Source: Candidatus Zhuqueibacterota bacterium
GTDB taxonomy: Bacteria; Zhuqueibacterota; Zhuqueibacteria; Residuimicrobiales; Krinioviventaceae
Direction of reading: 5' to 3'
NCBI GenBank assembly: GCA_016929295.1
Contig: JAFGJB010000214.1
Span: 10,261 to 74,260, forward strand
Length of the DNA stretch: 64,000 bases
In this document: positions 30,357 through 46,325 of the stretch, one piece after another
Layout: every line of letters begins with the position of its first letter
How positions within the stretch are numbered: position 1 is the first letter of the stretch
Notes under the pieces: model-generated
Databases searched by the model: none
What the model saw: only the letters and a program-made list of their open reading frames with translations
Told to the model about the DNA's origin: nothing
Program-made: the position numbers and the translations under genes

Positions 30357-32138
30357 TTAGGCCGCTTCATCATCCAGCCGTAAAAAGTCTTTTCTTGTTC
30401 TTTTCACTTTCGCCGGCACTCCCATGGCCACAGAGTAAGGAGGAATATCTCTGGTGACGACCGAGCCGGCGCCGATAACGCTGCCAGTGCCGATCGTGAC
30501 GCCGTCGAGCACTTTCACAGCCGTCCCCAGCCACACATCATCTTCAATGAAGACGCCGCCGCGATTGTTGTATCCTTGGCGCATAATCGGTACATCGGTT
30601 CGATCATAATTATGTTGAGCGCCGCCGACATAGCAATTTGCCGCCAATAAAACATGTTTTCCGATCCTGATTTCGGATGTGGTACCCAGACGACAATTCC
30701 CGCCCACATTGCAAAAATCGCCGACCTCGATTCGGCCATCGCGTGTTCCGAGCACCGTGCCTCGTCCCAGCAGCACTTCATTGCCCAGAACAATCTCGGA
30801 CTCTGCATTGCCCTGTGCGCTCAGACGGCAAAATTCATCAATGACGCATTTTTGGCCGATCGTAATTTTGCCGCTATGCTGAAGGGAAAGACTGCGGCCA
30901 AAGATCGTGCCGCGACCCACTTTCTTAAACAGAGTGGGAAACAGCAACGCGCGGGAAAAATAGCCCAGGATGCCCGGCAGGTAGCCGCAAAATAGCGTGA
31001 TCAGTTCAAACTTGATCAATGTGAAAATGCTATAGGAGCCAATTTGAATATCCTGATATTTTTTTAAAGCTGACTTGCGCTGTCGCATGATATCCTCAAA
31101 GCTGCTGAAATATTTGATATCCCCCTTGACGTCATTTTCATCAATGTGATAAGTTATTTTATCGCTGATTATTTCACTCTTGACATGTATGCCCAATGTG
31201 CCATAGTAGAGACCACCGATCATGCCGGCGACGAGCGCTTTGGCGCGCAGCAGCAATGCGACGGACAGCCCGGCAGCTCCCGGCACCCCCATGCGAGAAA
31301 ACACGACAAAGTAGGCGCTTTCTGCCAGGCCGATGCCGCCAATCGAGATTGGTATCATGGTGATGACCATGACGATGGGCGTTATGATCAACGCGTCCGT
31401 AAAAGCGATGGATGCATTAAAGGCCAGCGCGCTCACGTACACATTCAGACAAGCTAAAACATAAAATATCAAAGAGTTAATAACAGCAAATAGAAATGCG
31501 CCATGATTGTTTCTGAGCGACAATGTGGCTTTTTGAAATTTGAACAATTTAGTGAATACTCGTTGCGCAGCGGTCAGTTTGATCTGAAGCGAAATCCAAC
31601 GTAATATCTTTGGATGAAGGATGGCGAGGAGAACCAAAGCATAACCAATGACGCAGATCACCAATCCGGCGGTCAGCCACAGGCTCCTCAATTGACGTAA
31701 AGCAACGCCAAAGGCAATGATGGCCATGAGCAGCAGAACCGACAGACCGGTGGTTCGCTCGACAAATACGGAAGAAAATGTCTCAGCGGGTTTTTCTGTC
31801 GATTTGCCCAGCGCGTAGGCGCGCACTACATCACCGCCGACATTTGTCGGCAAGATGGTATTAAAAAAATAACCGACAACATAGAGCCAAAAGCATCGCC
31901 ATATCGTCGTATTGATTTTGAACGCCTTGAGGATCACTTGCCATTTCCAGGCACTGATAAATACAAGTACGGGCGTGATGGCGATCGAAAGCAGCAGATA
32001 GTTCAGATTCGTATTCTTGATGGTTCCCCAAATTTGCCCAAATCCGGCCTTGTGAAACACATAGCCAATCAAAGTCATACTCACGGCGATGCGCAACAAG
32101 AATTCCAGGCCAGCCTTTTTTTTGCCTGTTGCTGACAT
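30357..32138 (-). CDS. Fusion of a flippase-like polytopic membrane domain (LPG-synthase-TM/UPF0104, TIGR00374-like) with a C-terminal hexapeptide-repeat (LbH) acetyltransferase
   Basis: The N-terminal ~330 aa has multiple TM helices. The C-terminal GNEVLLGRGTVLG...IGKHVLLAANCYV...GVFIEDDVWLGTAVKVLDGVTIGTGSVIGAGSVVTRDIPPYSVAMGVPAK shows hexapeptide repeats typical of sugar O-acetyltransferases. Confidence 0.7.
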   Translation of the reverse strand: MSATGKKKAGLEFLLRIAVSMTLIGYVFHKAGFGQIWGTIKNTNLNYLLLSIAITPVLVFISAWKWQVILKAFKINTTIWRCFWLYVVGYFFNTILPTNVGGDVVRAYALGKSTEKPAETFSSVFVERTTGLSVLLLMAIIAFGVALRQLRSLWLTAGLVICVIGYALVLLAILHPKILRWISLQIKLTAAQRVFTKLFKFQKATLSLRNNHGAFLFAVINSLIFYVLACLNVYVSALAFNASIAFTDALIITPIVMVITMIPISIGGIGLAESAYFVVFSRMGVPGAAGLSVALLLRAKALVAGMIGGLYYGTLGIHVKSEIISDKITYHIDENDVKGDIKYFSSFEDIMRQRKSALKKYQDIQIGSYSIFTLIKFELITLFCGYLPGILGYFSRALLFPTLFKKVGRGTIFGRSLSLQHSGKITIGQKCVIDEFCRLSAQGNAESEIVLGNEVLLGRGTVLGTRDGRIEVGDFCNVGGNCRLGTTSEIRIGKHVLLAANCYVGGAQHNYDRTDVPIMRQGYNNRGGVFIEDDVWLGTAVKVLDGVTIGTGSVIGAGSVVTRDIPPYSVAMGVPAKVKRTRKDFLRLDDEAA

Positions 32139-32141
32139 GTG

Positions 32142-33329
32142 TCAATCCCTATGTCCACGTAAGAAAGATCTCAGGTGATACGCTGCATCGCGAGCTTTAG
32201 TTTTTTCTTTGACGAGCAGAGGCACCATTTGATTCTTCAGCTCCTGGCGGTTTTCATAGGACTGCACAATCAGCTCAACATATTTTTCCAGTGAAAGATC
32301 GCGAAAATCGATGAGGTTCTTTTCCAATCCGATCGTGCGCATATAGCCGCGATTTTTTGGATAGGTGGTGATGCCGACAGGCACTGTTCCCATCGCCGAG
32401 GAAAGAATGAGTGAATGCGTTCGCATGCCCACAAAAAGCGCTAGTCGTTTGAGAATCCCGCAGATATCCTGGTAACTGTACTTTGCATTTGTCACCAGCC
32501 GAATCCGTTCCTTTGTCTTTATTTTTTGCAAAACCTGATGCGCGATGCCTAGATCCATATGCTGGGTTTCGACGAAAATGACATCGACGTCCAGAGTCGC
32601 GATGACCTTATCGACGGTCTCTGCGTACAATTCGACAAGCTTGTTGCGCCCAAAAGTGGAGCCATCCGTTTGCACAAACGCATCGACATAACTGTTCACA
32701 TTGAAGCCGATCACCGCTTTGCCGCTCTCAAACAAATGCTCCGCCCGTATGATCTCTTCAACGCGCTTGTCGCTCGACACCTGCGCGTTGAGCGCACAAT
32801 CAGCACCCTCGATGATATTGGGATGCTCAAAACCAAGCTTTTCGAGCAGCTCGACGGATTCCTTGTCTCGCAGAATCAGCGCGTCCGCACAATCGACAAT
32901 CGCCTTGAGCGCCTTTTTGCCTGCATCCGTGCGGACCGGACCGAGACTGCTGTTATATAAAACGATCGGGATCTGTTTTTTTTTCGCCAGGGGCAGGATT
33001 TTGGCGAGCGTCCAGAGATAATTGTAGAGCGGATTGTAAAGCTTTCGGTCAAACAGGATAGCATCTGTCACCAGGACAAGATCCGCGCCCAACACTGTTT
33101 TTAGCGTGGGAAGCCCCAATATTTTCACGCTGAAATTCCATGGCAGCAAACTGACCGGTTTGACGCCATACTTTTCAAAATTTTTACGCACAAAGGCCGG
33201 ATTGATGGTCGGAACAGCAAACTCGACGCGTTTGTAGCGAGATGAAATGTCGGTCAACAAGCAACCAAGTATAGCGGCATCGCCGGCGTTGCGACCCGAG
33301 TTATTACCAATGACAGCGATCTTTTTCAT
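32142..33329 (-). CDS. Polysaccharide pyruvyl transferase family protein
   Basis: MKKIAVIGNNSGRNAGDAAILGCLL matches the PF04230 N-terminal motif. Confidence 0.75.
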   Translation of the reverse strand: MKKIAVIGNNSGRNAGDAAILGCLLTDISSRYKRVEFAVPTINPAFVRKNFEKYGVKPVSLLPWNFSVKILGLPTLKTVLGADLVLVTDAILFDRKLYNPLYNYLWTLAKILPLAKKKQIPIVLYNSSLGPVRTDAGKKALKAIVDCADALILRDKESVELLEKLGFEHPNIIEGADCALNAQVSSDKRVEEIIRAEHLFESGKAVIGFNVNSYVDAFVQTDGSTFGRNKLVELYAETVDKVIATLDVDVIFVETQHMDLGIAHQVLQKIKTKERIRLVTNAKYSYQDICGILKRLALFVGMRTHSLILSSAMGTVPVGITTYPKNRGYMRTIGLEKNLIDFRDLSLEKYVELIVQSYENRQELKNQMVPLLVKEKTKARDAAYHLRSFLRGHRD

Positions 33330-34321
33330 GACTTTCTCATATTTAAATGACCCTTTTCAATATACCAGTCCGCTGTTCGCTTGATCCCTTCACGCATGCT
33401 GACCTGCGGCGTATAACCTAATTCGTGTTTTGCTTTCGAGATGTCGAATGCACGGTCGTGGGTGAATATATGCACGCGACGCGGGTAGATCGGCGGCTGC
33501 AGCCGGAAAGGGATGCAGACCTTTTCGCACAAATGCGCGACTATTTCCAATGGCCGGACCGGAGGCATCCAATACAGAGGACGCACGCCGAGTTCTTCAG
33601 CCACCATGGTTGCGAATCCCATGAGTGTCGTATAGGATTCGCCGGCGATAATATAGGTTTGTCCGATGGCGATCTCTTTTTCGGCGGCCAGGCGAAAGCC
33701 TTCGACTGTATCGGTGACAAAAGTGAGATGATAGAGAACCTGTCCGTTGCCAAACATGATGAATCGCCGCTTTTGAATCGACTTGTATAATTTGAGCATT
33801 CGCGCATCGCCAGGGCCATAAATGCCAACCGGACGGACGATCGTCACCGGCAGTCCGTGCTTTTCGTGATAGCGGCGCGCCAGCTTTTCACCCTCGTACT
33901 TTGTCGTCTGATAGATATCCTCAGGCTCAATGGGGGCGTTTTCATCAGCCGGTGGATTTTTTATATGACCATGCACGCCACACGTGCTGCAATGAAGAAA
34001 TCGATTCACACCTGCTGCAAGCGCCGCTTCGAGCAGGTTTTCCGTACCGGTCACATTGACATCCCAATAAGCACTGTCAGGTACATTTGCAGCTCGATAG
34101 AGAGCCGCAATATGAAAAACGACATCGACGCCGTCGACGGCGCGAAGAACCTGGCTTTTATTTTGCAATTCACCATAGGCGAATTCGACCGGCAAATCCC
34201 GTAAAGCAGCCAGATCGCGCTGCGGACGCACGAAAACTCGCACAGCATAATCGTGCGCCAGCAAGTTTTTCACCATATAACCTCCGGTAAAGCCGGATGC
34301 GCCTGTCACCAGTGCTTTCAT
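33326..34321 (-). CDS. NAD-dependent epimerase/dehydratase family protein
   Basis: MKALVTGASGFTGGYM Rossmann motif and an SDR-extended pattern. Confidence 0.8.
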   Translation of the reverse strand: MKALVTGASGFTGGYMVKNLLAHDYAVRVFVRPQRDLAALRDLPVEFAYGELQNKSQVLRAVDGVDVVFHIAALYRAANVPDSAYWDVNVTGTENLLEAALAAGVNRFLHCSTCGVHGHIKNPPADENAPIEPEDIYQTTKYEGEKLARRYHEKHGLPVTIVRPVGIYGPGDARMLKLYKSIQKRRFIMFGNGQVLYHLTFVTDTVEGFRLAAEKEIAIGQTYIIAGESYTTLMGFATMVAEELGVRPLYWMPPVRPLEIVAHLCEKVCIPFRLQPPIYPRRVHIFTHDRAFDISKAKHELGYTPQVSMREGIKRTADWYIEKGHLNMRKS

Positions 34322-34342
34322 CGCCTCAAGACTCCCTCGACG

Positions 34343-35167
34343 TCACTTTTTCGCCACAATACAAATAGCATGGCCGTAATTCCTTCTGATAAATGCCGGC
34401 AGCAGATTATAGAGCGGTACAAAGATATGATTGAACAAGCCGGCTAAAAATCCTTTCCGCAGTGATGTCGTCGCCCGGATATAATCCAAAAAGACCTCAA
34501 CCTCGCGAAAGTCGATGAACAACTCGCGCACATTTTTCTTATCATACAAGCGCGTGATCGGTGCATCTTGATGGGCAAACTCAAAATTCACTTTGCCAAA
34601 TCTGGTGAGAAGAATTTTCCATGAATATTTATAATAGAGTGTAATCAGCGCTTCCCCGCCCGGCTTTAAAACTCGCCAAACTTCTGTCACCGCCTTCTGC
34701 GTGCTCTCCGTCTGATGCAGTACGCCAAGCGAAGCCACAACATCGAACGTGTTGTCATCAAACGGCAGCTCTTCCGCGCTGCCGTGCTTCAGTTCGGCCT
34801 GCAGATTATTGTGCTGTAAATTCTTTTGCGCCAGCTCCAGAGCAGCGGCTGACAAATCCAGGCCGGTCGCCTTCATGCCGCAGCGAGCCCAATGGACCAA
34901 TTCCCAGCCCGCGCCGCAGCCGACTTCGAGAATTTTTCCGCCCGGGAATTTTGCTGCCTGGTTTTCGATGAGACGATATCGATGTTCATAATTTTTCCTG
35001 ATGAATGAACCCACCGTATCAAAGAACTCTCCGGAGCCAATCCGACGCGGATCCCCTGTCCAGAATTGCGTTGAATTGACATTATCGGTCCAATATCGCT
35101 GAACCTCATCAATCGTTTTTATGTCGCTCCCCTTCCACAAATATGTTCCTATTGTATCCGCCATCAC
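34343..35167 (-). CDS. Class I SAM-dependent methyltransferase
   Basis: SAM-binding motif ILEVGCGAGWELVHWARCG...DLS and a LKPGG motif. Confidence 0.75.
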   Translation of the reverse strand: MMADTIGTYLWKGSDIKTIDEVQRYWTDNVNSTQFWTGDPRRIGSGEFFDTVGSFIRKNYEHRYRLIENQAAKFPGGKILEVGCGAGWELVHWARCGMKATGLDLSAAALELAQKNLQHNNLQAELKHGSAEELPFDDNTFDVVASLGVLHQTESTQKAVTEVWRVLKPGGEALITLYYKYSWKILLTRFGKVNFEFAHQDAPITRLYDKKNVRELFIDFREVEVFLDYIRATTSLRKGFLAGLFNHIFVPLYNLLPAFIRRNYGHAICIVAKK

Positions 35168-35190
35168 ATCATCCGTCTTTTACATTGTGA

Positions 35191-36858
35191 TCATTTATAG
35201 TTGTATGTTTTTTCATAATTAATTATCTCTTGGCGCTGCCGTGTCGGCGTCCAGTTCAGTTCGTGCGCCATCAGCGCCACTGCAGCAGATATCTGTGCAT
35301 CGGAAGCTCTGCCCGCAGTGCCCAGCTCCGTTCTCCGCAGCAAGATATCGGACAGGGTTTGTGCCATTTCGTAACGTATGCCGAAAATGACCTCGGCCTT
35401 GAGAACATACGAATCGCTGCACAGAAGGGCCCACTTTTCGCCATCCTCTGCGCAGTTGAGAACGTCTTGATACCGCGTACCAAAAGTATGTATGAGATGT
35501 TTTTTACTTTCAGGCGAAAAATCGCCGTTCAGATTCGCCATGCTTTTGCTGCGGAATTCCTCGAAAGAGCGCATATCGCCGCCCCATATCGGGACATCGC
35601 GACTGCGGGAGCATTTATCCCCATAGCCAAGCTTGTTGACAGCCTTGGTGACAGCTGCTTCTGCAACGCCGCGAGCGGTGGTAAATTTGACCGTCAGGAT
35701 GGAGAGCAAGCCGTCGAGATCATCTTTTTCTTTATGGTCGATGATTTCAAAATGCTTGGTGATGGTCACATCGCCGGTCTCTTTGTTGACGCCGGACATC
35801 GGTAACAAGCCGGCATAAACATGGACAATCTCATCGCGCCTGATTTTCTCATTTGGCAGCGCACCATTCACTTCATCAAGAAACTCACATATTTCCGTCT
35901 CGGTCACGGCATATTCATCGGCATCCCCGCGATAGGGTTTGTGCGCTGTGCCGGCCAACGTTTTTCCCCGCCACGGCACAAAGAACAGCAAGCGCGATCC
36001 CTTGTTAATGAGCGCATCGCTATCCTTGAACTCTTTTTTTGAGGGGGCAGCGAATGCGATGTCTGTCAATTGTCGGTTGATGACGAGGTTCATGGCGGTC
36101 GAGAACTCGATTTTTTTCTCCGCATGACAATGATCAGCGAGGAGGTCATTGATCCACGGACCAAGCGCCGTGATGGTCATTTTTGCGCTGATTTCAAACG
36201 AGTTTTCACCCACAAGATCGCGCGCCAGCACGCCGCAGACGCGGCGATTCTTCACGAGTAATTTTTCGGCTTTGACATAATTGGCCGCGGTCGCACCTTT
36301 CTCAACAGCCCCATGAAGAAAAGAAAAAAGCAGTCGTTCTGCATTTATCATATGGGCATCATACCACAGCGCGCCGCCGTTGAGATCATCTCTATTCACT
36401 CCCGGGATCAACTGCTGCACCTGTCTTTTCGACACTATCCTGCCGTGCGGCAGTTTGTGAGCGGCATCCAGACCTCGGTTACGATCCGCACTGAACAGAT
36501 CATTCATCAACAGGCCAATCCGCATCACTTCAGGTCCCTTCACCGCATGGCCGAAAGTCGGCATGATGCACGGCAGTGGGAATACAAGATGTGGGGCGAT
36601 CCTGAGCAGACTGCGCCGTTCGGCGATTGATTCGCGCATGCGAATCAGGTCCGCGTGCTGCAAATATCGCAGGCCGCCATGAATGATCTTGAGGCTGTTC
36701 GCTGATGTCCCGGAGGCGAAATCATTTTTTTCAATGAGGGCCACACGCAGGCCGCGCAGCACAGCATCCCAGGCCACTGTGGCGCCATATATACCGCCGC
36801 CGATGACGAGTAGATCGAACTCTTCGGTCGCGAGGCGCTGTAATTCTCGTTTCATCAT
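35191..36858 (-). CDS. FAD-dependent oxidoreductase, glycerol-3-phosphate dehydrogenase (GlpA/GlpD)-like
   Basis: DLLVIGGGIYGATVAWDAVLRGLRVALIEKNDFASGTSANSLKIIHGGLRYL is the GlpD-family dinucleotide-binding signature. Confidence 0.7.
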   Translation of the reverse strand: MMKRELQRLATEEFDLLVIGGGIYGATVAWDAVLRGLRVALIEKNDFASGTSANSLKIIHGGLRYLQHADLIRMRESIAERRSLLRIAPHLVFPLPCIMPTFGHAVKGPEVMRIGLLMNDLFSADRNRGLDAAHKLPHGRIVSKRQVQQLIPGVNRDDLNGGALWYDAHMINAERLLFSFLHGAVEKGATAANYVKAEKLLVKNRRVCGVLARDLVGENSFEISAKMTITALGPWINDLLADHCHAEKKIEFSTAMNLVINRQLTDIAFAAPSKKEFKDSDALINKGSRLLFFVPWRGKTLAGTAHKPYRGDADEYAVTETEICEFLDEVNGALPNEKIRRDEIVHVYAGLLPMSGVNKETGDVTITKHFEIIDHKEKDDLDGLLSILTVKFTTARGVAEAAVTKAVNKLGYGDKCSRSRDVPIWGGDMRSFEEFRSKSMANLNGDFSPESKKHLIHTFGTRYQDVLNCAEDGEKWALLCSDSYVLKAEVIFGIRYEMAQTLSDILLRRTELGTAGRASDAQISAAVALMAHELNWTPTRQRQEIINYEKTYNYK

Positions 36859-36865
36859 TATAGTG

Positions 36866-38767
36866 TCAGCCCTGAAAATTTCGTGTGTCTTTCATGTACA
36901 AGTCGTACCATAGATGAAATACCATCAATGCCCACAATCTGTGACTGTGATTCTCTTTGCTCTTCAAATGTTCATTGACGAGGCGATTGACAAACTGGGG
37001 ATCAAAATAGCCCTTTTCCACGACATTCTTTTCCGATAACGACTCGAGCATCATCGGCTTGAGCTCATTTTTAAGCCAGTTTTTGATCGGAATGCTAAAG
37101 CCTTCCTTTCCTCGTTCAATGACCGTGAGTGGCAGCACAGCGCGCAGGCTGTTTTTGAGAATGTGTTTCGTTCGCTTGCCGCGGAGCCGCAGATGACCGG
37201 GTATAGTCGCGGCGAACTCGACAAACCGATGATCCAGAAACGGCACGCGCGCTTCCAGCGAGTTCGCCATGCTCATGCGATCGACCTTGACGAGAATATC
37301 ATCAACCAGATAGCTTTTGATATCGACATATTCTTGTTGGTCAAGAGGATCCGGCGACGTCACCTGGGCAAAATACTCCTCGATGAAGCCAAAAGAATTA
37401 TAACCGTGCAAAGATCGGGCAAACTCTGGCGAATAGAGCAGCTCTTTCTCGGTCTGCTGTAGAAATATCATCCAGCGAACGTGTTGCAGATTGCCGGGCA
37501 ATCGTGTTCCCTCGATGAAGCGTTTGGATCTGTTGATGAATCCTTTCTTCTTTTTTGTCGGCGGCAATGCGTCCACTATAGGCTCAATGGCCGCTTTTCG
37601 CAGAAACCGTGGCAGCATATTGTATTTTTTTGCCAGCCGTTGCGCCAGGTAGGTGTCATAGCCGGCTAACAATTCATCCCCGCCATCACCGGAGAGCACG
37701 ACCTTCACATTCTTTCGCGCCATCTCGGAGACGAGATATGTCGGGAATACAGAAAAATCCCCGAATGGTTCATCAAGCATCCACAAGATTTTTTCTGTCA
37801 ACCTGGTGACGTCGGGTTTAATAATTTCCTCAAAATGTTCTGTACGGAACTTGTCGGCGACGGCACGAGCATATGGAAGTTCATTATAGGTCGCTTCATC
37901 AAAACCGATGGAAAAGCTTTTCACAGGATCAGCGCTGTTGCGGCTCATCATCGCGACGATCGAGCTCGAATCGAGGCCGCCGCTGAGGAAAGCGCCGAGA
38001 GGGACGTCACTCATCAATCGAATCTTCACCGCGTCTTCTAAAAGCTCCTCCAGGCGCGCATTCAAAGCCGCTTCGCCGGCCATTGTGCAGTGGTATTCCA
38101 CATTCCAGTATTGCTGCGTTTGAATTCGGCCGTCCTGGTACAACATCCAATGCCCGGGGGGCAGTTTGAAGATATTGGCAAAGATGCTGTAAGGGCTTGG
38201 AATATATTCAAAAGTGAGAAAAATATCCAGCGCTTTCGGTTCAATCTCTCTGGGGACGGAATCGAGTTGAACGATGGACTTGAGTTCCGATGCAAACACA
38301 AATTGCAGCTCATCGCAGTAGTAATAGAGTGGCTTGATGCCGAGGCGATCGCGAGCGAGGAAGAGTCGCTTATTTCGTCCGTCCCAGATCGCAAAGGCAA
38401 ACATGCCATTCAGTCTATTCACACAGTCCGTGCCCCACTCTTCATAGGCGTGCAGGATCGCTTCTGTATCGGTTTTGGTGCTGAAGAGGTAGCCTCTGGC
38501 GGTCAACTCTTTGCGGATATCGATATGGTTATAGATCTCGCCATTGAAAACAATGGCCATGGAGCGGTCTTGATTAAAAATGGGCTGATGGCCGGTGGAC
38601 AGATCAATGATGCTCAATCGCCGCATGCCGATGCCGATATTTTCATGGACGAATTGACCTTCGTCATCCGGACCACGATGTTCCATGGCATGGCACATTT
38701 TCTGAACGTCGGCGCATTCAACAGGATGGTCTTTATTCCGATGGATAACGCCACAAATACCGCACAT
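36866..38767 (-). CDS. asnB: Asparagine synthetase (glutamine-hydrolysing)-like amidotransferase
   Basis: N-terminal MCGICGV (Cys2 nucleophile) and the SGGLDSS PP-loop. I take the start at MCGICG. It overlaps the upstream GT4 stop by 1 nt (TAATG). Confidence 0.85.
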   Translation of the reverse strand: MCGICGVIHRNKDHPVECADVQKMCHAMEHRGPDDEGQFVHENIGIGMRRLSIIDLSTGHQPIFNQDRSMAIVFNGEIYNHIDIRKELTARGYLFSTKTDTEAILHAYEEWGTDCVNRLNGMFAFAIWDGRNKRLFLARDRLGIKPLYYYCDELQFVFASELKSIVQLDSVPREIEPKALDIFLTFEYIPSPYSIFANIFKLPPGHWMLYQDGRIQTQQYWNVEYHCTMAGEAALNARLEELLEDAVKIRLMSDVPLGAFLSGGLDSSSIVAMMSRNSADPVKSFSIGFDEATYNELPYARAVADKFRTEHFEEIIKPDVTRLTEKILWMLDEPFGDFSVFPTYLVSEMARKNVKVVLSGDGGDELLAGYDTYLAQRLAKKYNMLPRFLRKAAIEPIVDALPPTKKKKGFINRSKRFIEGTRLPGNLQHVRWMIFLQQTEKELLYSPEFARSLHGYNSFGFIEEYFAQVTSPDPLDQQEYVDIKSYLVDDILVKVDRMSMANSLEARVPFLDHRFVEFAATIPGHLRLRGKRTKHILKNSLRAVLPLTVIERGKEGFSIPIKNWLKNELKPMMLESLSEKNVVEKGYFDPQFVNRLVNEHLKSKENHSHRLWALMVFHLWYDLYMKDTRNFQG

Positions 38768-39990
38768 TAACTTTTTGTCCTCTTCACTCGTTCCACAATC
38801 CATTTGGTCTTTTGCAGGTAATCATCATAGCTGTAATGTTTCTCTGCCAGTTGTTGCGCGGCAGCGACAAGGCGACGTTGCTCCTCACTGTCATCCAAAA
38901 TGGCAAGCAAAGCATCTGCAAACGCCTCTGGATTCGGATCGGCTAGAACGGAAACGGAGTCACTGAGTATTTGAGTGTGCGTAATATGACGTGTAGCCAC
39001 AATGGGCTTCCCACTTCTCAAATAGGAATATATTTTAAGAGGTGAATTTGTCCCTTGCAAACGCGGTGAAACGAGCACATCGCTGAGCGAAACAAAGCTG
39101 GGGATCATCTCGGGGGGAACGAAGCCGGTAAAAGTGAACCTGGATGCAACGCCCAATCGTTGTGCCTGGCTGCGAAAATTCGACACCTGCTGTTCATTGC
39201 CGCCTACCATCAAAAAGTGAACATCGCCCGGCCGCTTTTTATTCACTCTCGCAGCACTCTCTATGAGCATATCAATCCCCTGATACGGCTCGAGCGTGCC
39301 GTAATAGAGTACAATTTTAGCGCCATTCAAGCTATACTTTTTTCGCAAACTTTCTCGCCGTGAATCGGTCGCCGGGAAAACGATGCTGTTGTCCGCGACA
39401 TTTTCGATCAGCATGCTTTTTTGAGCGGAAAAATGTCTTTCAACATAGCTCTGCAATTCGGGGCAAATCGTTATGACGCCGGCCGACTTTACGATTGCAT
39501 TTCTTTCAAGGGACTCGAACAGGTTTCGCAACAACCTGGATTTGGAAAATTTAAAGTTGCCGAGCTGTTGCGGCAGGCTCGAGTGCATATCATAGAGATG
39601 AGGCAGACCGTATTTCGCTGCGAGTTTAATACCAAAGAACGCCGCTTCCTCGTGGGTGTGGAGATAGTCATAGGTGTTTTTTTTTAGCAATTCGACCGCT
39701 TTACGATAGAGGGCGATATCGAGAAATATTTTCGCCAAAGACGGGCCGATCTTGACTTTATTGATGAATGGCAGCTTTGCTGCGCGATGAATGGAGAGAT
39801 TGTCGATTGGCACATCCTGCCCCACATGATAGGTCACCAGGTCAACCTGATGGCCGAGCAGTGACAACGCTTTGATGCGATGCAATACGCTGAACGGCGT
39901 ACCACGAGGTTGGAACCATGGCTGTGGTGCGATCATGAGAATACGCAGCTTTTCCATTTCATCACTATAAGGGATGCTTATATTCATCGA
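38767..39990 (-). CDS. Family 4 glycosyltransferase (GT4)
   Basis: The N-terminal LRILMIAPQPWFQPRGTPFSV and the C-terminal EGFG-type region have the GT-B pattern. I take the start at MNISIP. Confidence 0.75.
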   Translation of the reverse strand, partial: SMNISIPYSDEMEKLRILMIAPQPWFQPRGTPFSVLHRIKALSLLGHQVDLVTYHVGQDVPIDNLSIHRAAKLPFINKVKIGPSLAKIFLDIALYRKAVELLKKNTYDYLHTHEEAAFFGIKLAAKYGLPHLYDMHSSLPQQLGNFKFSKSRLLRNLFESLERNAIVKSAGVITICPELQSYVERHFSAQKSMLIENVADNSIVFPATDSRRESLRKKYSLNGAKIVLYYGTLEPYQGIDMLIESAARVNKKRPGDVHFLMVGGNEQQVSNFRSQAQRLGVASRFTFTGFVPPEMIPSFVSLSDVLVSPRLQGTNSPLKIYSYLRSGKPIVATRHITHTQILSDSVSVLADPNPEAFADALLAILDDSEEQRRLVAAAQQLAEKHYSYDDYLQKTKWIVERVKRTKS

Positions 39991-40012
39991 AAAATACCTA
40001 ATACAAAAGGAC

Positions 40013-41470
40013 TTATTGAGCACCGTAGCCGGTGATGACGACCAAAAAGGTTCTAAACATAAGTTTGAGATCGAGTGCGAGAGACCAATGATCGATGTAT
40101 TCCAGGTCCATCCGCATCCACTCCTCAAAACCTATCTTGTTCCGGCCACTGACTTGCCAGATACAGGTGATCCCGGGTTTGAGAGAGAGTCTTCTGCGTT
40201 GCCAAATTTCATAGTGCTCGACTTCACTTCGCAAGGGCGGACGCGGGCCGACGATGCTCATATCTCCTTTCAACACATTAAAGAATTGCGGAATTTCATC
40301 GATGCTGGTTTTGCGGATGATATATCCAATCGGTGTGATGCGCGGGTCATGTTTTATCTTGAATACAGGACCATCCATCTCGTTATAATGAAGGAGCGAG
40401 TCTTTCAATGTTTCGGCATCCGATACCATGGAGCGAAATTTATACAACTGGAATTTACGTCCATTGAGTCCAATACGTTCCTGCTTGAAAAAGATGGGAC
40501 CTTTGGACGTTATTCGAATCAACAGAGCTGCAAGCAGGATGAGCGGCGAGAAAAATAAGATGGCCGTCAACGAAATAGCAATGTCGAGCACTCTTTTGAT
40601 GAAGAGTTGCCATTCTTTGGCATAAAAAGTCTGGAATTCCAGCAGCGGGAAGCCGTTAAAGTCCGTCTGTCGCGCTTTGGCAATATGCAGATTATAGAGA
40701 TCCAGGGAAATGGATGTTGATACACCGACTTTTTCGCACTCCAGTATGGCGCCTTCGATGCGATCCAGCCAGATTCGTGGCACCACGAAAATAACCCGGT
40801 CGATGACCAACCGATTCACAATGAAGCCGATGTCCTGAATTCGGCCCAGCACACGAAAGCCTTCAATCTCTTTGCCAAAATATCGCGGATCATCATCGAT
40901 CAAACCGACGACATGCAATCCCCAATTCGAATGACTTTTGACATTGCGAATGAACTCGCGGGCGCGATTGCCGGTCCCGACGATGAGCAAATTCTCCTGA
41001 TTATATCCTCTGGCATGCATTCGCTCCAGGATGAAGAGAATGATCGCTTTTTCCATAATGATCAGCGTATAGGCCGTACCTGAGTAGACGAGGAAAAACA
41101 ACCGACTTGCCATATCAAATTTGAAAAAGAAGATAAAACTGCCGCACACAAAACTGGCCCATACGGAGGTGATGAAAAGAATCCACGCCAAATTTTTAAA
41201 TGAACGTGTCCGGTAATCCTGGTAGATCTTGTTGAGATTGTAGAGTCCCCACCAGATGAGCGGAAAACCGATGAACATGACCCAGTATTTTGACGTAAAA
41301 TACAACAGGCCGGACACATTTATGCTGGTCGCATAAGCCTTTACATTCCAGAAAGTAATATGACGGATGAACTCGTCAATATAGTAGGCCAGCGGAAACG
41401 CCGAATAGAGAATGAGCAGGTCAACAAACTTGAATACATTCTGTATGAATTTTTCTTTATCTGCCAGCAT
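40013..41470 (-). CDS. Undecaprenyl-phosphate sugar phosphotransferase (WbaP/CpsE-like priming glycosyltransferase)
   Basis: KRVLDIAISLTAILFFSPLILLAALLIRITSKGPIFFKQERIGLNGRKFQLYKFRSM is the conserved bacterial sugar transferase C-terminal domain. The N-terminal region is a TM domain. Confidence 0.85.
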   Translation of the reverse strand: MLADKEKFIQNVFKFVDLLILYSAFPLAYYIDEFIRHITFWNVKAYATSINVSGLLYFTSKYWVMFIGFPLIWWGLYNLNKIYQDYRTRSFKNLAWILFITSVWASFVCGSFIFFFKFDMASRLFFLVYSGTAYTLIIMEKAIILFILERMHARGYNQENLLIVGTGNRAREFIRNVKSHSNWGLHVVGLIDDDPRYFGKEIEGFRVLGRIQDIGFIVNRLVIDRVIFVVPRIWLDRIEGAILECEKVGVSTSISLDLYNLHIAKARQTDFNGFPLLEFQTFYAKEWQLFIKRVLDIAISLTAILFFSPLILLAALLIRITSKGPIFFKQERIGLNGRKFQLYKFRSMVSDAETLKDSLLHYNEMDGPVFKIKHDPRITPIGYIIRKTSIDEIPQFFNVLKGDMSIVGPRPPLRSEVEHYEIWQRRRLSLKPGITCIWQVSGRNKIGFEEWMRMDLEYIDHWSLALDLKLMFRTFLVVITGYGAQ

Positions 41471-41473
41471 CTA

Positions 41474-42457
41474 TCAATCATGTCCTGGAATAGTCGGTCC
41501 TCGCTGTCCCTCATGTTGAAGGAACCATTCTACAAAATATCCTATACCGTCCTCGATATTAATTTGCGGATCATATTTTAGCTCCCTCCTGGCCTTTTCC
41601 ACATCAGCATAGGTGATCGGAACGTCACCCGGTTGATCCGATCTGAATTCGATGAGAGCTTCAATGCCGAGCGCATGCTGAATGAGTCCGACGAGCGCCA
41701 TGAGCTCAACGGTTTTTGATTCGCCGAGATTGTATATGTTATAACCATCGCAATGGTGAATCGCTGCAGTGAGGCCCTGAATGATATCCGAAATATAGGT
41801 ATAATCACGACGGCTTTTTCCGGAGCCAAAGACCGATATGGGCGTCCGGTTGTAGATCAGACGAGTAAATTTGTGAATTGCCATATCCGGTCGCTGCCGC
41901 GGGCCATAGACGGTGAAGAAGCGCAGACAATTGACCGAAATATCATACAAGTGGTGGTAGGTATAGCAGATGAGCTCTCCCGCCTTTTTTGTCGCAGCGT
42001 AGGGTGATATCGGCTGATCCACCGGATCCGATTCTGCAAATGGCACTTTTTCATTGGCGCCATACACAGACGAAGAAGAGGCAAAGACAAATTTTTTGAT
42101 ACGATGGATTCTGCACTGCTCCAGCAAATTCATCGTGCCCTGCACATTCACTCTCTCATAGAGCAAGGGCTGTTCGATCGATGGCCGAACACCGGCGCGC
42201 GCTGCGAGATGGACGATTGCATCAAAATGGCGCTGATTGAAAACGGCTGCGACGTCGGATTCATGCAAAATATCCACTTTAGCAACTGCGTAATCAGGCG
42301 ACGCCAGCGCCTTTTGAATATTCTGTTGTTTTATGTCCGGATGATAATAGTCATTGAAATTATCAAGACAAACAACAGTGTGTCCTTCTTGCAGCAGCTT
42401 TTCAACCAGGTGCGAGCCGATGAATCCAGCTCCTCCAGTGACGAGAATATTCATCAA
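41474..42457 (-). CDS. NAD-dependent epimerase/dehydratase (UDP-sugar 4-epimerase-like)
   Basis: MMNILVTGGAGFIGSHL Rossmann motif. Confidence 0.8.
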   Translation of the reverse strand: MMNILVTGGAGFIGSHLVEKLLQEGHTVVCLDNFNDYYHPDIKQQNIQKALASPDYAVAKVDILHESDVAAVFNQRHFDAIVHLAARAGVRPSIEQPLLYERVNVQGTMNLLEQCRIHRIKKFVFASSSSVYGANEKVPFAESDPVDQPISPYAATKKAGELICYTYHHLYDISVNCLRFFTVYGPRQRPDMAIHKFTRLIYNRTPISVFGSGKSRRDYTYISDIIQGLTAAIHHCDGYNIYNLGESKTVELMALVGLIQHALGIEALIEFRSDQPGDVPITYADVEKARRELKYDPQINIEDGIGYFVEWFLQHEGQRGPTIPGHD

Positions 42458-42472
42458 ACGCTCTTTATTATT

Positions 42473-44815
42473 TTAATAGTGATAATAGCTGTACGCACTT
42501 TTCATATTTGCTTCTTGCGTGCCGTTCATGACGATGCCGACAAGATTTGCCGGGACGGAATGAAAGATGTTCAAACGTTCTTTGGCATTGTTGCGATTGG
42601 TCTTACCCGCGCGCACGACGACCGCGACAGCGTCCACCAGTGTGCTGATGACAACAGAGTCGGTCGCCGCATCCAGCGGCGGTGCGTCAAAAATAATAAA
42701 GTCGTATTTTCTTTTTACCTCGGCAACAAATCGCCGCATCTGCATGGAGCCCAATAATTCAGAGGGATTGGGAATCAAAGAACCGCAGCTCAGTACAGAG
42801 AGATTTGGGACATGCGTCGGCTGGATGAGTCCGACGAGGGTCGCCTTGTTGCTCAGATAGCTGGTCAATCCCGGATCCTTCGAGGTGCTGAAGGTGTTGT
42901 GCTGAACGCCGCGACGGAGGTCAGCGTCAACCAGCAACGTGTTCGTGCGTTGTTGCGCCATGATGATGGCGAGGTTGCTGGCGGTGAACGATTTCCCTTC
43001 TTCCGGGCTGATGCTGGTGATGAGCAGCGTTCTGATTTGCTCTGAACCTCGCGCAAATAACAGCTGTGTTCGCAGCGCGCGGTACGCTTCTCCAACTGGA
43101 GTCGGCGAGTAGTCGTGCGTCACTAGTTGGCGGTCAATTTGCGACGCTTTCTGGTCGTCGCGAAAATCAGGAATATCCTTGAAAGAGACAACAGGTATTG
43201 TCCCGAGCACCGGCAGGTTCAGATAACGTTCCACATCTTTGAGTGTATGCAGCGACCGATCAGCAACATCAATGCCGATGGAGAGGACTAGTCCGAGCAT
43301 GAATCCGAGTCCTGCGCCAATCATGACCTGCATATTTTTGCTCGGATTGACCGGCTTGGTGGGTCGAACAGCACGGTCGAGGATGCGGATGCCCGTATCC
43401 GAACCGGCGCTGGAGACCTGGAGTTTTTTCATTTCAACGTAAAAAGCCGTATACAATTCCTCGTCGACTTGTTTTTTTCTCTCCAGTTCCATCAATCGTC
43501 TCTCATCGCTTGGCAAGGCATACAATCTTGTTTCCAGTTCAGATTTTTCCTTGCGATGTTTCGATTCTTGCTCGGCAAGGATATTTCGATAGTTGGAAGC
43601 AAATTGCACGATTTTATCCTGCGTTTCTTTTATTCTCCTGGCATAGTTGATGACATCCTTATGTTCGGCGGAATACTGGGCATACAATCGATCATATTCC
43701 CTTTCCAAATTCCCAAGGTTTTGGCGATAAATCACCAATTCGGGCTCGTCTGCCATAGGGGTTAAATTGGCTATCTGTTGTATGACGACGCGGCGATATT
43801 CCATCTCATAGCCGTCTTCGGGATTATCAAGCTTTGTGAGCAGATTTGTCAGGGTCCGCCGCTGCGACGGCAGAGTTCGCAGGGCGGTCTCGTTGGCTGA
43901 GAGTTGATTCATCAGGTTCTTTTTTTCAGCATCGAGCGAGAGCGGATATTGCGAATAGAATCGGTGCAGATATTCTTCACTATTCTTCACATTTTCTTCA
44001 GCGGCCGCAAGGTTGCGGCTCAGCATGTCTCGATAAGTGTCAGAATCCATCAGCTTCAGCCTTTTGATTTCGGCAAGATAGGTCTCGGCAATGCGATTGA
44101 GCAATTTAGGTATCAAATCAGGATCTACATCTTCAAGCTCCAAAACCATGAAATTGCCGGCCCTGTTGAAACTTTTTGCAATCTTATAATCAAGGAATTT
44201 AAAACCTTTGATAAACGGCCTGATGCGGAAATTGAACTCTCCAGGTTTATAGCTGAAATTTGGATTGAGACGGAATGAAATCCCGTTGATGGAGCGAGGC
44301 GTATCGACGGCATCCCAAACATTGGCACTATCGACAGCGACGTGCACATCCCCTTTCTTTTGAAATAAATAATAGGTTCCCAGTTTATCAATTACTATTT
44401 TATATTGGGCTTCAACAGGATTTGTCGTTGTCTGATATTCCAGGAAAACCTCGTCGAGTTCCTTATAGACCGAGTCCGAAACGGCATATGCCAAGCCCAG
44501 GATTGCCGCCATACGCTCAGTGAAAGATTGGCTACGAATTTCTGCCTGGGTTTCGCCATCAAAAATATTATACTCGTCGCTGCCGACTTTTTTCGACTGA
44601 ATGACTACCCGGCATTTATAGCGTGGCACCTGGTTTTTGGCAACAAAGTAAAAAGGGATAGCAACAATGCAACTCAGACAGAGAATGAGCCACTTGCGCT
44701 TCCATATACCTTTAATGAACTTGACAAAATCTATTTGGTTTGTTTGCCCTGCATCAAATGACTCTTCAAATGCTTGAAAATCTTCCATCGCCATAGTTTT
44801 ACCTTCGCTTCTCAT
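42473..44815 (-). CDS. Polysaccharide co-polymerase / BY-kinase (Wzc/GumC-like): Wzz chain-length determinant domain plus a C-terminal tyrosine kinase with a Tyr cluster
   Basis: Two TM segments flank a periplasmic coiled-coil region. Walker A is ITSISPEEGKSFTASNLA. The C-terminal tyrosine cluster is SAYSYYHY. Confidence 0.85.
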   Translation of the reverse strand: MRSEGKTMAMEDFQAFEESFDAGQTNQIDFVKFIKGIWKRKWLILCLSCIVAIPFYFVAKNQVPRYKCRVVIQSKKVGSDEYNIFDGETQAEIRSQSFTERMAAILGLAYAVSDSVYKELDEVFLEYQTTTNPVEAQYKIVIDKLGTYYLFQKKGDVHVAVDSANVWDAVDTPRSINGISFRLNPNFSYKPGEFNFRIRPFIKGFKFLDYKIAKSFNRAGNFMVLELEDVDPDLIPKLLNRIAETYLAEIKRLKLMDSDTYRDMLSRNLAAAEENVKNSEEYLHRFYSQYPLSLDAEKKNLMNQLSANETALRTLPSQRRTLTNLLTKLDNPEDGYEMEYRRVVIQQIANLTPMADEPELVIYRQNLGNLEREYDRLYAQYSAEHKDVINYARRIKETQDKIVQFASNYRNILAEQESKHRKEKSELETRLYALPSDERRLMELERKKQVDEELYTAFYVEMKKLQVSSAGSDTGIRILDRAVRPTKPVNPSKNMQVMIGAGLGFMLGLVLSIGIDVADRSLHTLKDVERYLNLPVLGTIPVVSFKDIPDFRDDQKASQIDRQLVTHDYSPTPVGEAYRALRTQLLFARGSEQIRTLLITSISPEEGKSFTASNLAIIMAQQRTNTLLVDADLRRGVQHNTFSTSKDPGLTSYLSNKATLVGLIQPTHVPNLSVLSCGSLIPNPSELLGSMQMRRFVAEVKRKYDFIIFDAPPLDAATDSVVISTLVDAVAVVVRAGKTNRNNAKERLNIFHSVPANLVGIVMNGTQEANMKSAYSYYHY

Positions 44816-45461
44816 CCGTCAACGCATAATATAGAAAAAAGAGAGATGCAAAAAGATTGATATATCTCATAACTGCATCAAAGCTGATTCGATTGATTCG
44901 CGGGACGACGATCTCATCGCCCGACTCAAGTCCCAGCTCGCCAATGGATGCACCTTCGTTCAGAGAATTCCAAAACTCTGCGTAAATGATTTCACCCCGC
45001 CGCACAACATATATATTCTCCGCCGCCAGGTTGCTCGACATACCTCCTGCTTCCGCAACAAGATCCCAAAAAGAGGTGCGCGGACTGAAGCGATACATGC
45101 CCGGCTTGCCAAACTCTCCCCTGAGGATAAGCCGTATGAGGGGAACGACCATTATTGTCAGGTTTTTTCCATATGTTCGCAGCTTTTCTTCAAACAGCTT
45201 GGTCACCTCCTCGACGGACAGATTCGCCACGTAGACTCTGCCAAAGGATCCCAGATGCACGTAACCTTCTCCGTCGATCACAAATTCAGTGTCATGAAAG
45301 CTTGCCAGAATTCTGTTACGCTCGGGTTCCATGTCGTTATCATAGATTAATATTCTCAAACCATCGGCCTTTTTAAATTTAAAATCATCCGCAGCAAAGA
45401 GATCGAGCCCGGTGAAAAGTAATGCGATTATGGAATAGATAATATATTTTATCTGCAACAT
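44799..45461 (-). CDS. Polysaccharide export protein (Wza-like; Poly_export plus SLBB)
   Basis: Signal peptide. RILIYDNDMEP and GDEIVVP motifs typical of Poly_export/SLBB. It overlaps the wzc start by 17 nt. Confidence 0.7.
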   Translation of the reverse strand: MLQIKYIIYSIIALLFTGLDLFAADDFKFKKADGLRILIYDNDMEPERNRILASFHDTEFVIDGEGYVHLGSFGRVYVANLSVEEVTKLFEEKLRTYGKNLTIMVVPLIRLILRGEFGKPGMYRFSPRTSFWDLVAEAGGMSSNLAAENIYVVRRGEIIYAEFWNSLNEGASIGELGLESGDEIVVPRINRISFDAVMRYINLFASLFFLYYALTDEKRR

Positions 45462-45480: not shown

Positions 45481-46233
45481 TTATCGCGAGCGGAAATAGC
45501 GGAACCTTTTTGTTTTTGTATTCAGAGATAAACTTTTCAATATCTTGTTTAATTTAAAAAGGCCAATCTTGGTATAGCCAAAACGTGGTGAATAAAGCAT
45601 CCTTTTCAGCCCCCAAGCACCAAGAATCGGGTTTTCCAAAACGATTTTTTTTATCTTTTCATTCATCGGCAGCAGCGTTTCATCAATTTCTCTACTGTGA
45701 TTGAAGCGGCCTGGCTTTGAGCTGGGCGACATCGTCTCAACGGGCACATGATTCAGCGTTCGGCTTTTTTCGCTGATGAATGAGCTATCCGCGATCTCCT
45801 CATCACTCACGGATGCAAGAGCGTGCGAATGTGAGGTTGCCGGGACCGTGTTATTGAGTTCACGATAAAAATCAAAATCCTCTATCGCCTCCTCAATCGA
45901 GTCATAGTTGGAGAGGATGCGATGAAATTCGAGCATTTCGAAAACCTCATAAACCTCCGACGACATCTGGGTGATTTTCAAGTCACCCCCTTTCTCCTGT
46001 AATCGGCGTATTTCGCCGACAAAAACGCCCCATCCCGCGCTGCTGACATATTGAACGGCGCCCATATCAATGATAAATTGACAGACTCCCTGTTCAATCG
46101 TTAGTCCTAAAACTTTTTGCAGCTCGGGTGACGTGTTTGTATCGACATAGCCATGCGTTTTAAGCAGGGCGATATCCTTCAGCGCGCCAACACGATACTC
46201 ATCAATCTGAATGCCTTCCATAAAACTCTTCAT
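45481..46233 (-). CDS. STAS-domain protein (anti-sigma-factor-antagonist fold) with a ~130-aa C-terminal extension that ends in a basic tail
   Basis: The N-terminal ~115 aa fit the SpoIIAA/STAS pattern (LKTHGYVDTNTSPELQKVL...QFIIDMGAVQYVSSAGWGVFVGEIRRLQEKGGDLKITQMSSEVYEVFEMLEF). The extension ends KSLSLNTKTKRFRYFRSR. Confidence 0.65.
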   Translation of the reverse strand: MKSFMEGIQIDEYRVGALKDIALLKTHGYVDTNTSPELQKVLGLTIEQGVCQFIIDMGAVQYVSSAGWGVFVGEIRRLQEKGGDLKITQMSSEVYEVFEMLEFHRILSNYDSIEEAIEDFDFYRELNNTVPATSHSHALASVSDEEIADSSFISEKSRTLNHVPVETMSPSSKPGRFNHSREIDETLLPMNEKIKKIVLENPILGAWGLKRMLYSPRFGYTKIGLFKLNKILKSLSLNTKTKRFRYFRSR

Positions 46234-46309: not shown

Positions 46310-46325
46310 AGCAAAGTTGGTGCCA
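46310..46325 (-). promoter_or_regulatory. Sigma-54 (RpoN) promoter candidate, TGGCAC-N5-TTGCT
   Basis: The minus strand reads TGGCACCAACTTTGCT, with GG and GC at the canonical -24/-12 spacing. It lies ~75 bp upstream of the STAS gene start. Confidence 0.5.

Follow-up and report, generated by a model that had tools for sequence, protein, structure and literature searches.

We analyzed a 64,000-nucleotide stretch of DNA (the window) from a Candidatus Zhuqueibacterota bacterium (GenBank assembly GCA_016929295.1, contig JAFGJB010000214.1; the lineage is called KSB1 below, and a candidate division KSB1 bacterium in the NCBI records has a protein 100% identical to the fusion described here) and studied a polysaccharide operon on its minus strand. 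Our leading reading, in which we have about even confidence as a whole, is that this is a vertically inherited, probably sigma-54-driven operon of 12 genes, conserved across KSB1, that makes a surface or extracellular polysaccharide whose short decorated unit would be flipped by a UPF0104 membrane domain and polymerized by an enzyme that is encoded elsewhere or is of an unrecognized kind. An earlier note on this DNA had described positions 30357–45461 as an exopolysaccharide locus of twelve genes, tightly packed on one strand, with export and initiation genes, a single family 4 glycosyltransferase (GT4) and a modification set. Minus-strand open reading frames (ORFs) do run uninterrupted through this interval in the ORF listing of the window, spaced, once start codons are corrected, from a 17-nt overlap (one of several overlaps) to 25 nt, and Pfam and NCBIfam recovered every family that had been named, so that strand, packing and gene content all held up. 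The count did not: the interval contains 11 ORFs, the two halves of one continuous UPF0104 and LbH ORF having been counted separately. A gene for a 250-aa STAS-domain protein (45481–46233, minus strand, as are all genes of the operon; Pfam STAS 1e-16; TIGR00377 61 bits, above the cut-off) lies 19 nt upstream of the export gene, and because it adjoins that gene so closely, the transcription unit is most likely one of 12 genes, from 46233 to 30357. For comparison, we fetched DNA around homologs of the initiating phosphoglycosyl transferase (PGT), the fusion protein and the flavoprotein of the operon, which gave 11 KSB1-type loci that we scanned and three additional views, L165–L167 (handles of this form denote loci retrieved from other genomes). 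The STAS gene keeps its position in all KSB1-type loci that extend that far and is the probable first gene of the operon.

A gap of 301 nt lies upstream of the STAS gene, toward glgA, and within it, 77 nt upstream of the STAS start codon, is a sigma-54-type promoter element, TGGCACCAACTTTGC (46311–46325, minus strand), that agrees with the −24/−12 consensus. It is the sole match to TGGCAC-N5-TTGC in the 64 kb, where 0.16 would be expected by chance; an identical 15-mer is found 71–89 nt upstream of the orthologous STAS gene in L003, L004, L009 and L165, and versions with one mismatch lie upstream of STAS in L006 and L008. The motif and its conservation suggest that the operon is probably sigma-54-dependent. 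An Rfam scan returned a tRNA-Gln only, with no riboswitch in the 301-nt leader, and a generic scan for sigma-70 promoters and terminators was set aside because its sites were no more frequent than in shuffled sequence. Elsewhere in the window, downstream of purD, 17801–18997 encodes a 398-aa sigma-54 activator (Sigma54_activat and HTH_8) with no receiver domain detected, which overlaps by 4 nt the end of another epimerase/dehydratase gene of the short-chain dehydrogenase/reductase (SDR) type (18994–19938); this activator is a candidate regulator of the sigma-54-type promoter of the operon. The STAS protein itself retains Ser-Ser-Ala-Gly where antagonists of the SpoIIAA type have their phosphorylated serine, and has a 130-residue C-terminal extension that has no family assignment and ends in a basic tail, KRFRYFRSR.

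The operon and its surroundings have a conserved order: lgt, an outer-membrane protein gene (OMP), cpoB, glgA, STAS, export, Wzc, SDR, PGT, GT4, AsnB, flavoprotein, methyltransferase, SDR, pyruvyl transferase and fusion. The order from lgt through OMP, cpoB, glgA and STAS into the locus is kept in at least five KSB1-type genomes, and others share it from glgA or STAS onward; on the far side, a close relative keeps two hypothetical genes, a GSU2086-family gene, GHL10, uvrB and purD. Mean protein identity is equal for locus and flank across six genomes (for example, 81.7 vs 82.5%, 74.8 vs 76.9%, 63.5 vs 59.0% and 47.1 vs 51.1%). The lower GC content that the earlier note had remarked on is real relative to the first 23 kb (48.7 vs 53.5%) but not relative to the right 18.5 kb (48.4%), a flank of core housekeeping genes (glgA, cpoB, lgt, prsA, rplY, pth, rpsF, ssb, rpsR, rplI and tsaD). 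GC at third codon positions (GC3) does not differ between the locus (0.549) and this flank (0.548; Mann-Whitney p = 0.98). No tRNA, integrase or insertion sequence borders the locus in the annotation of the window, and the marks of a horizontally acquired island (distinct composition, mobility genes or a tRNA border, patchy presence) were not found in the locus. The horizontal exchange that the note had read into the low GC thus fails on each of these counts; with its synteny, its equal divergence from the flank and its matching GC and GC3, the locus has been passed down vertically within the lineage and is not an exchanged low-GC island. The window as a whole has a GC step, from 52–53.5% (GC3 about 0.60) over roughly 1–30000 to about 48.5% (GC3 about 0.55) over roughly 30000–64000, which includes ribosomal protein genes on its lower-GC right side and is independent of the polysaccharide locus.

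The export and initiation genes encode a polysaccharide co-polymerase of the PCP-2a type with a bacterial tyrosine kinase, an export protein (OPX) and an initiating PGT. The Wzc-type co-polymerase and tyrosine autokinase (42473–44815; Wzz, GNVR and AAA_31) joins its GNVR and autokinase domains to Walker A, A′ and B motifs and a C-terminal tyrosine cluster, KSAYSYYHY, and scores 172.7 bits against TIGR01007, above the cut-off of 108. The PGT, a polyprenyl-phosphate hexose-1-phosphate transferase of the WbaP/WcaJ type (40013–41470), has Bac_transf (3e-69) and CoA_binding_3 domains and reaches 419 bits against TIGR03025 (cut-off 296). The OPX (44799–45461) had been taken for a classic Wza; by Pfam, an AlphaFold model (pLDDT 84.7) and Foldseek, it is a minimal protein of 220 aa with Poly_export, one SLBB domain and a 26-residue C-terminal helix (194–219), its sequence aligning only to residues 62–230 of E. 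coli Wza and its top Foldseek matches being E. coli Wza (2J58, 1.4e-11) and the Class-3 WzaB (9N9A). Class 1 OPX proteins need a C-terminal Wza_C helix that spans the outer membrane, and Class 3 proteins are without it (PMC9603273). Here, the C-terminal segment is conserved in 30 homologs, has no Pfam Wza_C match and is confidently predicted to form a helix, of modest amphipathicity (muH 0.30, reached by 8% of shuffles). Class-3 systems use a porin partner (PMC9603273, PMC12819527). Between lgt and cpoB, 48939–50159 encodes a 406-aa predicted outer-membrane beta-barrel whose gene most KSB1 loci keep in the same place; it matches OMP_b-brl weakly and no PDB entry by sequence, and could be the porin partner of the short export protein.

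Two epimerase/dehydratases had been listed for the locus; two SDRs of that fold are indeed present, and the first can be refined to a probable UDP-glucuronate 4-epimerase. This protein of the GalE/RmlB fold (41474–42457, with a likely true start at ATG 42454) has as its best PDB matches 5U4Q (293 bits), the Bacillus cereus UDP-glucuronate 4-epimerase 6ZL6 (200) and MoeE5 (167), all above the GalE enzymes, and it scores 195 bits against the GalE equivalog model, below the cut-off of 262. It carries S/T-S-S (here S-S-S), Y-x3-K and FTVYGPxxRPDMA motifs, with FTVYGPRQRPDMA common to it and 5U4Q, 6ZL6 and MoeE5; we take these motif residues to be the ones that bind the carboxylate in uronate epimerases. 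A UDP-glucose dehydrogenase gene (ugd) is inserted directly after the PGT gene in L008 and L166, and this insertion in two relatives, together with the epimerase resemblance, makes a galacturonate-containing product likely. It is plausible that the AsnB-type glutamine amidotransferase (36866–38767; Asn_synthase 8e-108; true start at Met13, MCG..., at 38767, overlapping the GT4 stop codon) forms a uronamide. MoeE5 and MoeF5 of moenomycin synthesis are a precedent for such a pairing of epimerase and amidotransferase.

We looked for Wzx and Wzy around these genes by testing which ORFs of the window, down to a length of 100 aa, have three or more hydrophobic segments. ORFs with this property were ComEC, the UPF0104 fusion, the PGT, Wzc, Lgt, a DUF3307 protein and two short ORFs; together with Pfam, the scan revealed no candidate for Wzx or Wzy, either inside the locus or in the 19 kb to one side and the 30 kb to the other, no Polysacc_synt match and no unassigned multi-transmembrane ORF in the 64 kb or in the 11 related KSB1-type loci, and no GT-C protein in the window or the KSB1 loci. 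The Pfam annotation of the window outside the locus names unrelated genes only, and the locus is too tightly packed to conceal a wzy gene. The lack of a Wzy polymerase in the locus, which the earlier note had pointed out, is thereby borne out and extends to the surroundings of the operon in the 11 KSB1-type loci, while the Wzx/Wzy pair that it had allowed for just outside the region is not found within those 19 and 30 kb. The convergent ORFs at 27286–28851 and 28835–30349 were considered as a hidden Wzy or Wzx or an outer-membrane porin and rejected, neither being multi-transmembrane or belonging to a Pfam or NCBIfam family; 28835–30349 also has no significant PDB match.

The only flippase candidate of the locus, as had been proposed, is the UPF0104 domain, and this point extends to the whole lineage. 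The domain forms the N-terminal half of a 593-aa fusion protein (30357–32138; UPF0104/PplT by LPG_synthase_TM, 6e-48, followed by a WcaF-like LbH O-acetyltransferase by Hexapep, 3e-12). Both the sequence and the fold of this 8-transmembrane domain place it in the UPF0104/PplT family: it matches PF03706 at 6e-48 and TIGR00374 at 113 bits (cut-off 43), and Foldseek aligns the membrane half of an AlphaFold model (pLDDT 75) with cryo-EM structures of MprF (7DUW, 6LVF, 9GOE and 7F47; probability 1.00 over about 335 columns), the sole membrane proteins among its top 50 matches, and the C-terminal half with LbH acetyltransferases. We found about 66 clusters of full-length fusions, down to about 48% identity, and those named by organism are all KSB1 or a metagenome-assembled genome labeled Calditrichaeota. 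In L082, L083, L084 and L166, the two halves are separate adjacent or nearby genes, and this occurrence, fused in KSB1 and as separate neighbors elsewhere, links the acetyltransferase and the UPF0104 protein functionally. According to published work, a domain of the UPF0104 type translocates the lipid in MprF, is widespread and occurs in fusions with many enzymes, among them glycosyltransferases and O-antigen ligases (10.1101/2022.03.11.483950); GpgF is the predicted flippase of a GT4/deacetylase/flippase glycolipid operon (PMC12713373), and UPF0104 is the predicted flippase of archaeal glycosylation pathways, beside PMT/STT3-like enzymes (PMC5898192). The KSB1 fusion has the MprF layout, a membrane domain and then a cytoplasmic acyl-transfer domain, which suggests a "decorate, then flip" arrangement.

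Stand-alone UPF0104 proteins that are 36–41% identical to the N-terminal half of the fusion occur elsewhere among the same kinds of genes. The cyanobacterium Moorena (L083) has, in order, GT4, flavoprotein, methyltransferase, SDR, pyruvyl transferase, FrhB-like protein, UPF0104 and LbH acetyltransferase; L084 is nearly the same, L082 has two UPF0104/LbH/AsnB sets, and the components in these three loci are 39–50% identical to the window proteins. The GT4 of the window (38767–39987; 406 aa, its start most likely Met48 of the listed ORF, at 39987, judging from orthologs of 405–406 aa and alignments starting at residue 61) is the first gene of this cross-phylum cassette and is 42% identical to the cassette GT4 of L084; the second SDR shows 39–50% identity to the cassette SDRs of other phyla, and the polysaccharide pyruvyl transferase (32142–33329; PS_pyruv_trans 7e-30) shows 47% to its orthologs in Moorena and L084. 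The class I S-adenosylmethionine-dependent methyltransferase (34343–35167; Methyltransf_11 4e-26) occupies the same slot in many cassette loci, and AsnB is missing from L002 and found in other cassette loci. GT4, flavoprotein, SDR and UPF0104 recur in L097, L099, L102, L106 and L129 and partly in L087, L089 and L093; L166, an unfused relative, has the whole set plus PGT and Wzc genes; and a PGT gene lies near the cassette in L082, L086, L099, L106, L153 and L166. Frequent additions are a methyltransferase, an LbH acetyltransferase, AsnB, a DUF5060/GH5-like hydrolase and PMT_2 (GT-C) membrane proteins. Across 17 cassette loci, a Pfam scan of the 10 unassigned multi-transmembrane neighbors found a Wzx-family protein in L102 only. 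No curated NCBIfam family covers the cassette, and we found no paper that describes it. The genes from GT4 to UPF0104 thus constitute a cassette common to cyanobacteria and other phyla, which KSB1 joined to export and initiation genes and in which it fused UPF0104 to the acetyltransferase; what had been noted as an unusually rich modification set of this locus is, with GT4 and UPF0104, shared with those phyla.

Some cassette loci carry further genes. A DUF5060/GH5- or apiosidase-like hydrolase of about 555–590 aa directly adjoins the UPF0104 gene in five otherwise different loci (L099 13690–15438, L106 13606–15348, L129 4386–6143, L084 11307–13079 and L002 11796–13460) and may be a polymer-trimming enzyme of the cassette; BLAST found no homolog of it in the window. 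A YdjM-family membrane hydrolase gene recurs in L082, L083 and L166, and a second, divergent UPF0104 gene is present in L082 and L083; neither is in the KSB1 operon (sites of these two gene types: L083 13266–15079; L082 13871–14875 and 19503–20108; L166 18347–18913). In L166, a radical SAM gene (8012–9091) is inserted between AsnB and the methyltransferase and three GT2 genes follow the cassette, because of which we think that some lineages probably make a longer or differently modified unit. A hormogonium polysaccharide (Hps) identity for the Moorena cassette was rejected, scores against the Hps set falling far below the cut-offs.

The flavoprotein of the cassette (35191–36858) had been called a GlpD-like FAD oxidoreductase, and a GlpD fold of DAO plus DAO_C architecture (PF01266 1e-39, PF16901 5.5e-22) is present; its active site is another matter. 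It falls below all curated GlpD and GlpO cut-offs (best 242 bits vs 360), and His233 and Arg317 of E. coli GlpD, conserved in the solved E. coli, B. halodurans and streptococcal enzymes and which we take to have a catalytic role, are replaced by Asn and Leu. The same pair is present in all orthologs of the related loci and cassette loci and in all 120 of the 120 closest database clusters (46–100% identity), the named ones of which are annotated as "glycerol-3-phosphate dehydrogenase/oxidase" or "FAD-dependent oxidoreductase." We also scanned metagenomes with a GlpD-like alignment, using generic FAD-site patterns; the many true GlpDs returned served as an internal control. In loci of at least 6 kb, GT4, SDR, AsnB, methyltransferase or UPF0104 neighbors accompanied 14 of the 17 genes with a residue other than Arg at 317 and none of the 26 with Arg (Fisher p = 9e-9). 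With both residues replaced and the substituted type neighboring glycan genes, the name glycerol-3-phosphate dehydrogenase is almost certainly wrong for this protein, to judge from its sequence; we regard it as a neofunctionalized, glycan-cluster-associated GlpD subfamily without two residues of the solved enzymes. Beside it, the second SDR (33326–34321), with an extended short-chain dehydrogenase/epimerase fold (Epimerase 6.5e-44), has HpnA as its best NCBIfam match, at 169 bits and below the cut-off.

These families can be arranged in a pathway. The GalE-like first SDR would convert UDP-glucuronate to UDP-galacturonate, and the WbaP-type PGT, its family clear from sequence and its substrate presumed, would start a polyprenyl-diphosphate-linked unit, to which the single GT4 would add one sugar, probably the uronic acid, giving a disaccharide. 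At the cytoplasmic face, this unit may be decorated by AsnB amidation, methylation, a pyruvate ketal and O-acetylation, while a two-step oxidation and reduction analogous to that of DprE1/DprE2 may be the work of the GlpD-fold FAD enzyme and the HpnA-like SDR. The MprF-type UPF0104 domain, fused to the acetyltransferase, would flip the finished lipid-linked unit; polymerization would fall to an enzyme encoded outside the 19–30 kb around the operon, in which none was found; and the Wzc autokinase and minimal OPX, members of families with these roles, would control chain length and export. The short-repeat, heavily substituted polysaccharide that the earlier note had predicted remains the most economical reading, with the sugars and decoration sites put forward on family resemblance. 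It is possible, though doubtful, that this widespread cassette of GT4, a GlpD-derived FAD oxidase without the glycerol-3-phosphate site, HpnA-like SDR and UPF0104 redox-modifies a lipid-linked sugar, with the MprF-type domain replacing Wzx as the polyprenyl-glycan flippase, so that KSB1 would run a Wzc/OPX export without canonical Wzx and possibly without Wzy.

Several points weigh against the pathway as we have drawn it. Sugar identities and decoration sites are assigned by resemblance to families, and no polymerase candidate was found in the window. The experimentally supported cargoes of UPF0104 are glycerolipids and not polyprenyl-diphosphate glycans. Where there is a Wzc autokinase, Wzx and Wzy are normally expected as well; their genes may be elsewhere in the genome, and UPF0104 need not then flip the unit. 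Several cassette loci of other phyla have no PGT within 10 kb and carry PMT_2 (GT-C) proteins instead, which fits a lipid-linked donor pathway; in the distant relative L008, the 10 kb downstream of the PGT contain neither a GlpD-like gene nor one for a pyruvyl transferase or UPF0104; and a sigma-54-type element between ugd and GT4 in L166 suggests that the cassette is able to form a transcription unit of its own.

One alternative, which we consider possible but doubtful, is an ordinary Wzx/Wzy-dependent capsule or exopolysaccharide pathway with wzx and wzy at another chromosomal site, in which the UPF0104::LbH protein only acetylates, or handles another lipid, and does not flip the repeat unit. 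The locus has the hallmarks of that pathway in its intact Wzc autokinase, its OPX and its WbaP-type PGT, Wzy proteins are hard to recognize, and our scans covered the 64-kb window and the related loci; split polysaccharide loci are also known, for example in Myxococcus. Yet no additional multi-transmembrane gene lies beside the operon in the 11 KSB1-type loci or in the gene calls of L165–L167, over fusion identities of about 50% to 87%; a flippase-type domain is retained, fused to a decoration enzyme, throughout the lineage; and of the 17 cassette loci from other phyla, most have UPF0104 and one was found to have Wzx.

It is unlikely, in our judgment, that the GT4-to-UPF0104 cassette is a separate pathway for a decorated glycolipid or lipid-linked donor, in the manner of GpgSDF, HexSDF, Arn or DprE1/E2 plus GT-C, that is merely co-transcribed with the export genes or feeds side chains into their product. 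Such a pathway would suit the head-group-modified glycerolipids that are the supported UPF0104 cargoes, the fact that GpgS is a GT4, and the best PDB relatives of the window GT4, MshA and PimA, whose acceptors are inositol phosphate and phosphatidylinositol; in NCBIfam, the SDR and the UPF0104 domain come closest to HpnA and HpnL, which are hopanoid-associated. The cassette stands without a PGT within 10 kb in L083, L084, L087 and L129, and PMT_2 GT-C proteins accompany it in L083, L084, L102 and L129, as PMT/STT3-like enzymes do in the archaeal UPF0104 neighborhood (PMC5898192). In every KSB1-type locus and in L166, by contrast, GT4 directly follows the PGT (or PGT and ugd), the operon minus GT4 would have no elongating glycosyltransferase, and no GT-C protein is encoded in the window or the KSB1 loci. 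Characterized pyruvyl transferases of the same family, CsaB and WcfO, act on polyprenyl-diphosphate-linked oligosaccharides, which also counts against it. We give almost no credence to a glycan island that is exchanged horizontally, varies between strains and stands out by low GC: the GC of the locus is indeed below that of the first 23 kb, but GC and GC3 are those of the adjoining core and ribosomal genes, lgt, cpoB and glgA remain syntenic to one side and uvrB and purD to the other, the locus has diverged as much as its flank in six genomes, and there are no mobility genes or flanking tRNA.

Beyond the operon, a plus-strand block convergent to it (23287–30349) encodes a GHL10 glycosyl-hydrolase-like protein (812 aa), a GSU2086-family protein and two proteins (521 and 504 aa) that match no family, and the 504-aa ORF and the fusion gene have their stop codons 7 nt apart; the block is kept in the close relative L167 and not in the more distant KSB1 genomes L001, L002 and L165. 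Farther left, 10538–14752 encodes a 1404-aa subtilase with FG-GAP repeats and a weak type IX secretion C-terminal sorting domain, which fits an organism of the FCB group, and a GT2 gene (14760–15653) and a TPR protein adjoin it.

With the E. coli colanic acid and group 1 capsule loci, the operon shares an OPX, a Wzc autokinase, a WcaJ/WbaP-type transferase, a WcaF-like LbH protein and a WcaK-family pyruvyl transferase. Unlike them, the KSB1 locus has no Wzx, Wzy or Wzb and one glycosyltransferase rather than five or six; its OPX has 220 aa and one SLBB domain, vs 379 aa; its acetyltransferase is fused to UPF0104; and the operon is conserved across the phylum instead of varying between strains. 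With the Class-3 OPX of the Myxococcus xanthus EPS, BPS and MASC pathways (PMC9603273, PMC12819527), it shares a short Poly_export-SLBB protein, with a fold match to WzaB 9N9A. Those pathways have the beta-barrel porins WzpX, WzpS and WzpB (PMC9603273, PMC12819527) and encode Wzx and Wzy, whereas the KSB1 OPX ends in a conserved 26-residue helix and has no adjacent gene for an 18-stranded porin. The fusion resembles MprF in having the same UPF0104/PplT domain, by sequence and predicted fold, with a membrane domain followed by a cytoplasmic acyl-transfer domain, and the operon resembles GpgSDF in bringing together a GT4, a modifying enzyme and UPF0104; in contrast to MprF, GpgSDF and HexSDF, the fused enzyme is an LbH protein of the acetyl-CoA type, not aminoacyl-tRNA-dependent, and stands in a PGT/Wzc/OPX context.

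The flavoenzyme and SDR would parallel DprE1/DprE2, in which a flavin oxidase is paired with an SDR for lipid-linked glycans, the KSB1 FAD enzyme being of membrane-associated dehydrogenase descent; it has a GlpD/DAO fold and not the vanillyl-alcohol-oxidase fold of DprE1. A UDP-uronate 4-epimerase with an AsnB-type amidotransferase recalls MoeE5/MoeF5 of moenomycin synthesis (MoeE5 being the third-best PDB match), and a uronate epimerase with a GT4 recalls TviC/TviE of the Vi antigen (weak TviC and TviE NCBIfam matches); lipid carriers and export routes differ from both, and the KSB1 locus has no ABC transporter. Finally, XrtA/PEP-CTERM loci of the Methylobacillus eps type supply the nearest or near-best NCBIfam matches of AsnB, GT4, tyrosine kinase and chain-length proteins, but all such scores are below the family cut-offs (TIGR03108, 683 vs 817 for AsnB; TIGR03018, 142 vs 231; TIGR04063, 108 vs 442), and the 64-kb window contains no exosortase-like or other multi-transmembrane ORF of this system.

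What this analysis adds is the cassette, the fusion of UPF0104 with the acetyltransferase, a flavoprotein subfamily that is almost certainly mis-annotated and the sigma-54-type start of the operon. This large subfamily, whose named members are annotated as glycerol-3-phosphate dehydrogenase/oxidase or generic FAD oxidoreductase, almost certainly acts in glycan synthesis. If the proposed role of UPF0104 is true, the fusion would be a concrete candidate, open to testing, for a flippase of polysaccharide repeat units from outside the MOP family, and the "modify, then flip" principle of MprF would extend from phospholipids to glycans. In a phylum represented by metagenomes only, a single, fixed operon for an envelope polysaccharide is maintained behind what appears to be a sigma-54 promoter, and because the operon is fixed, its product is likely a core component of the envelope and not a variable antigen.

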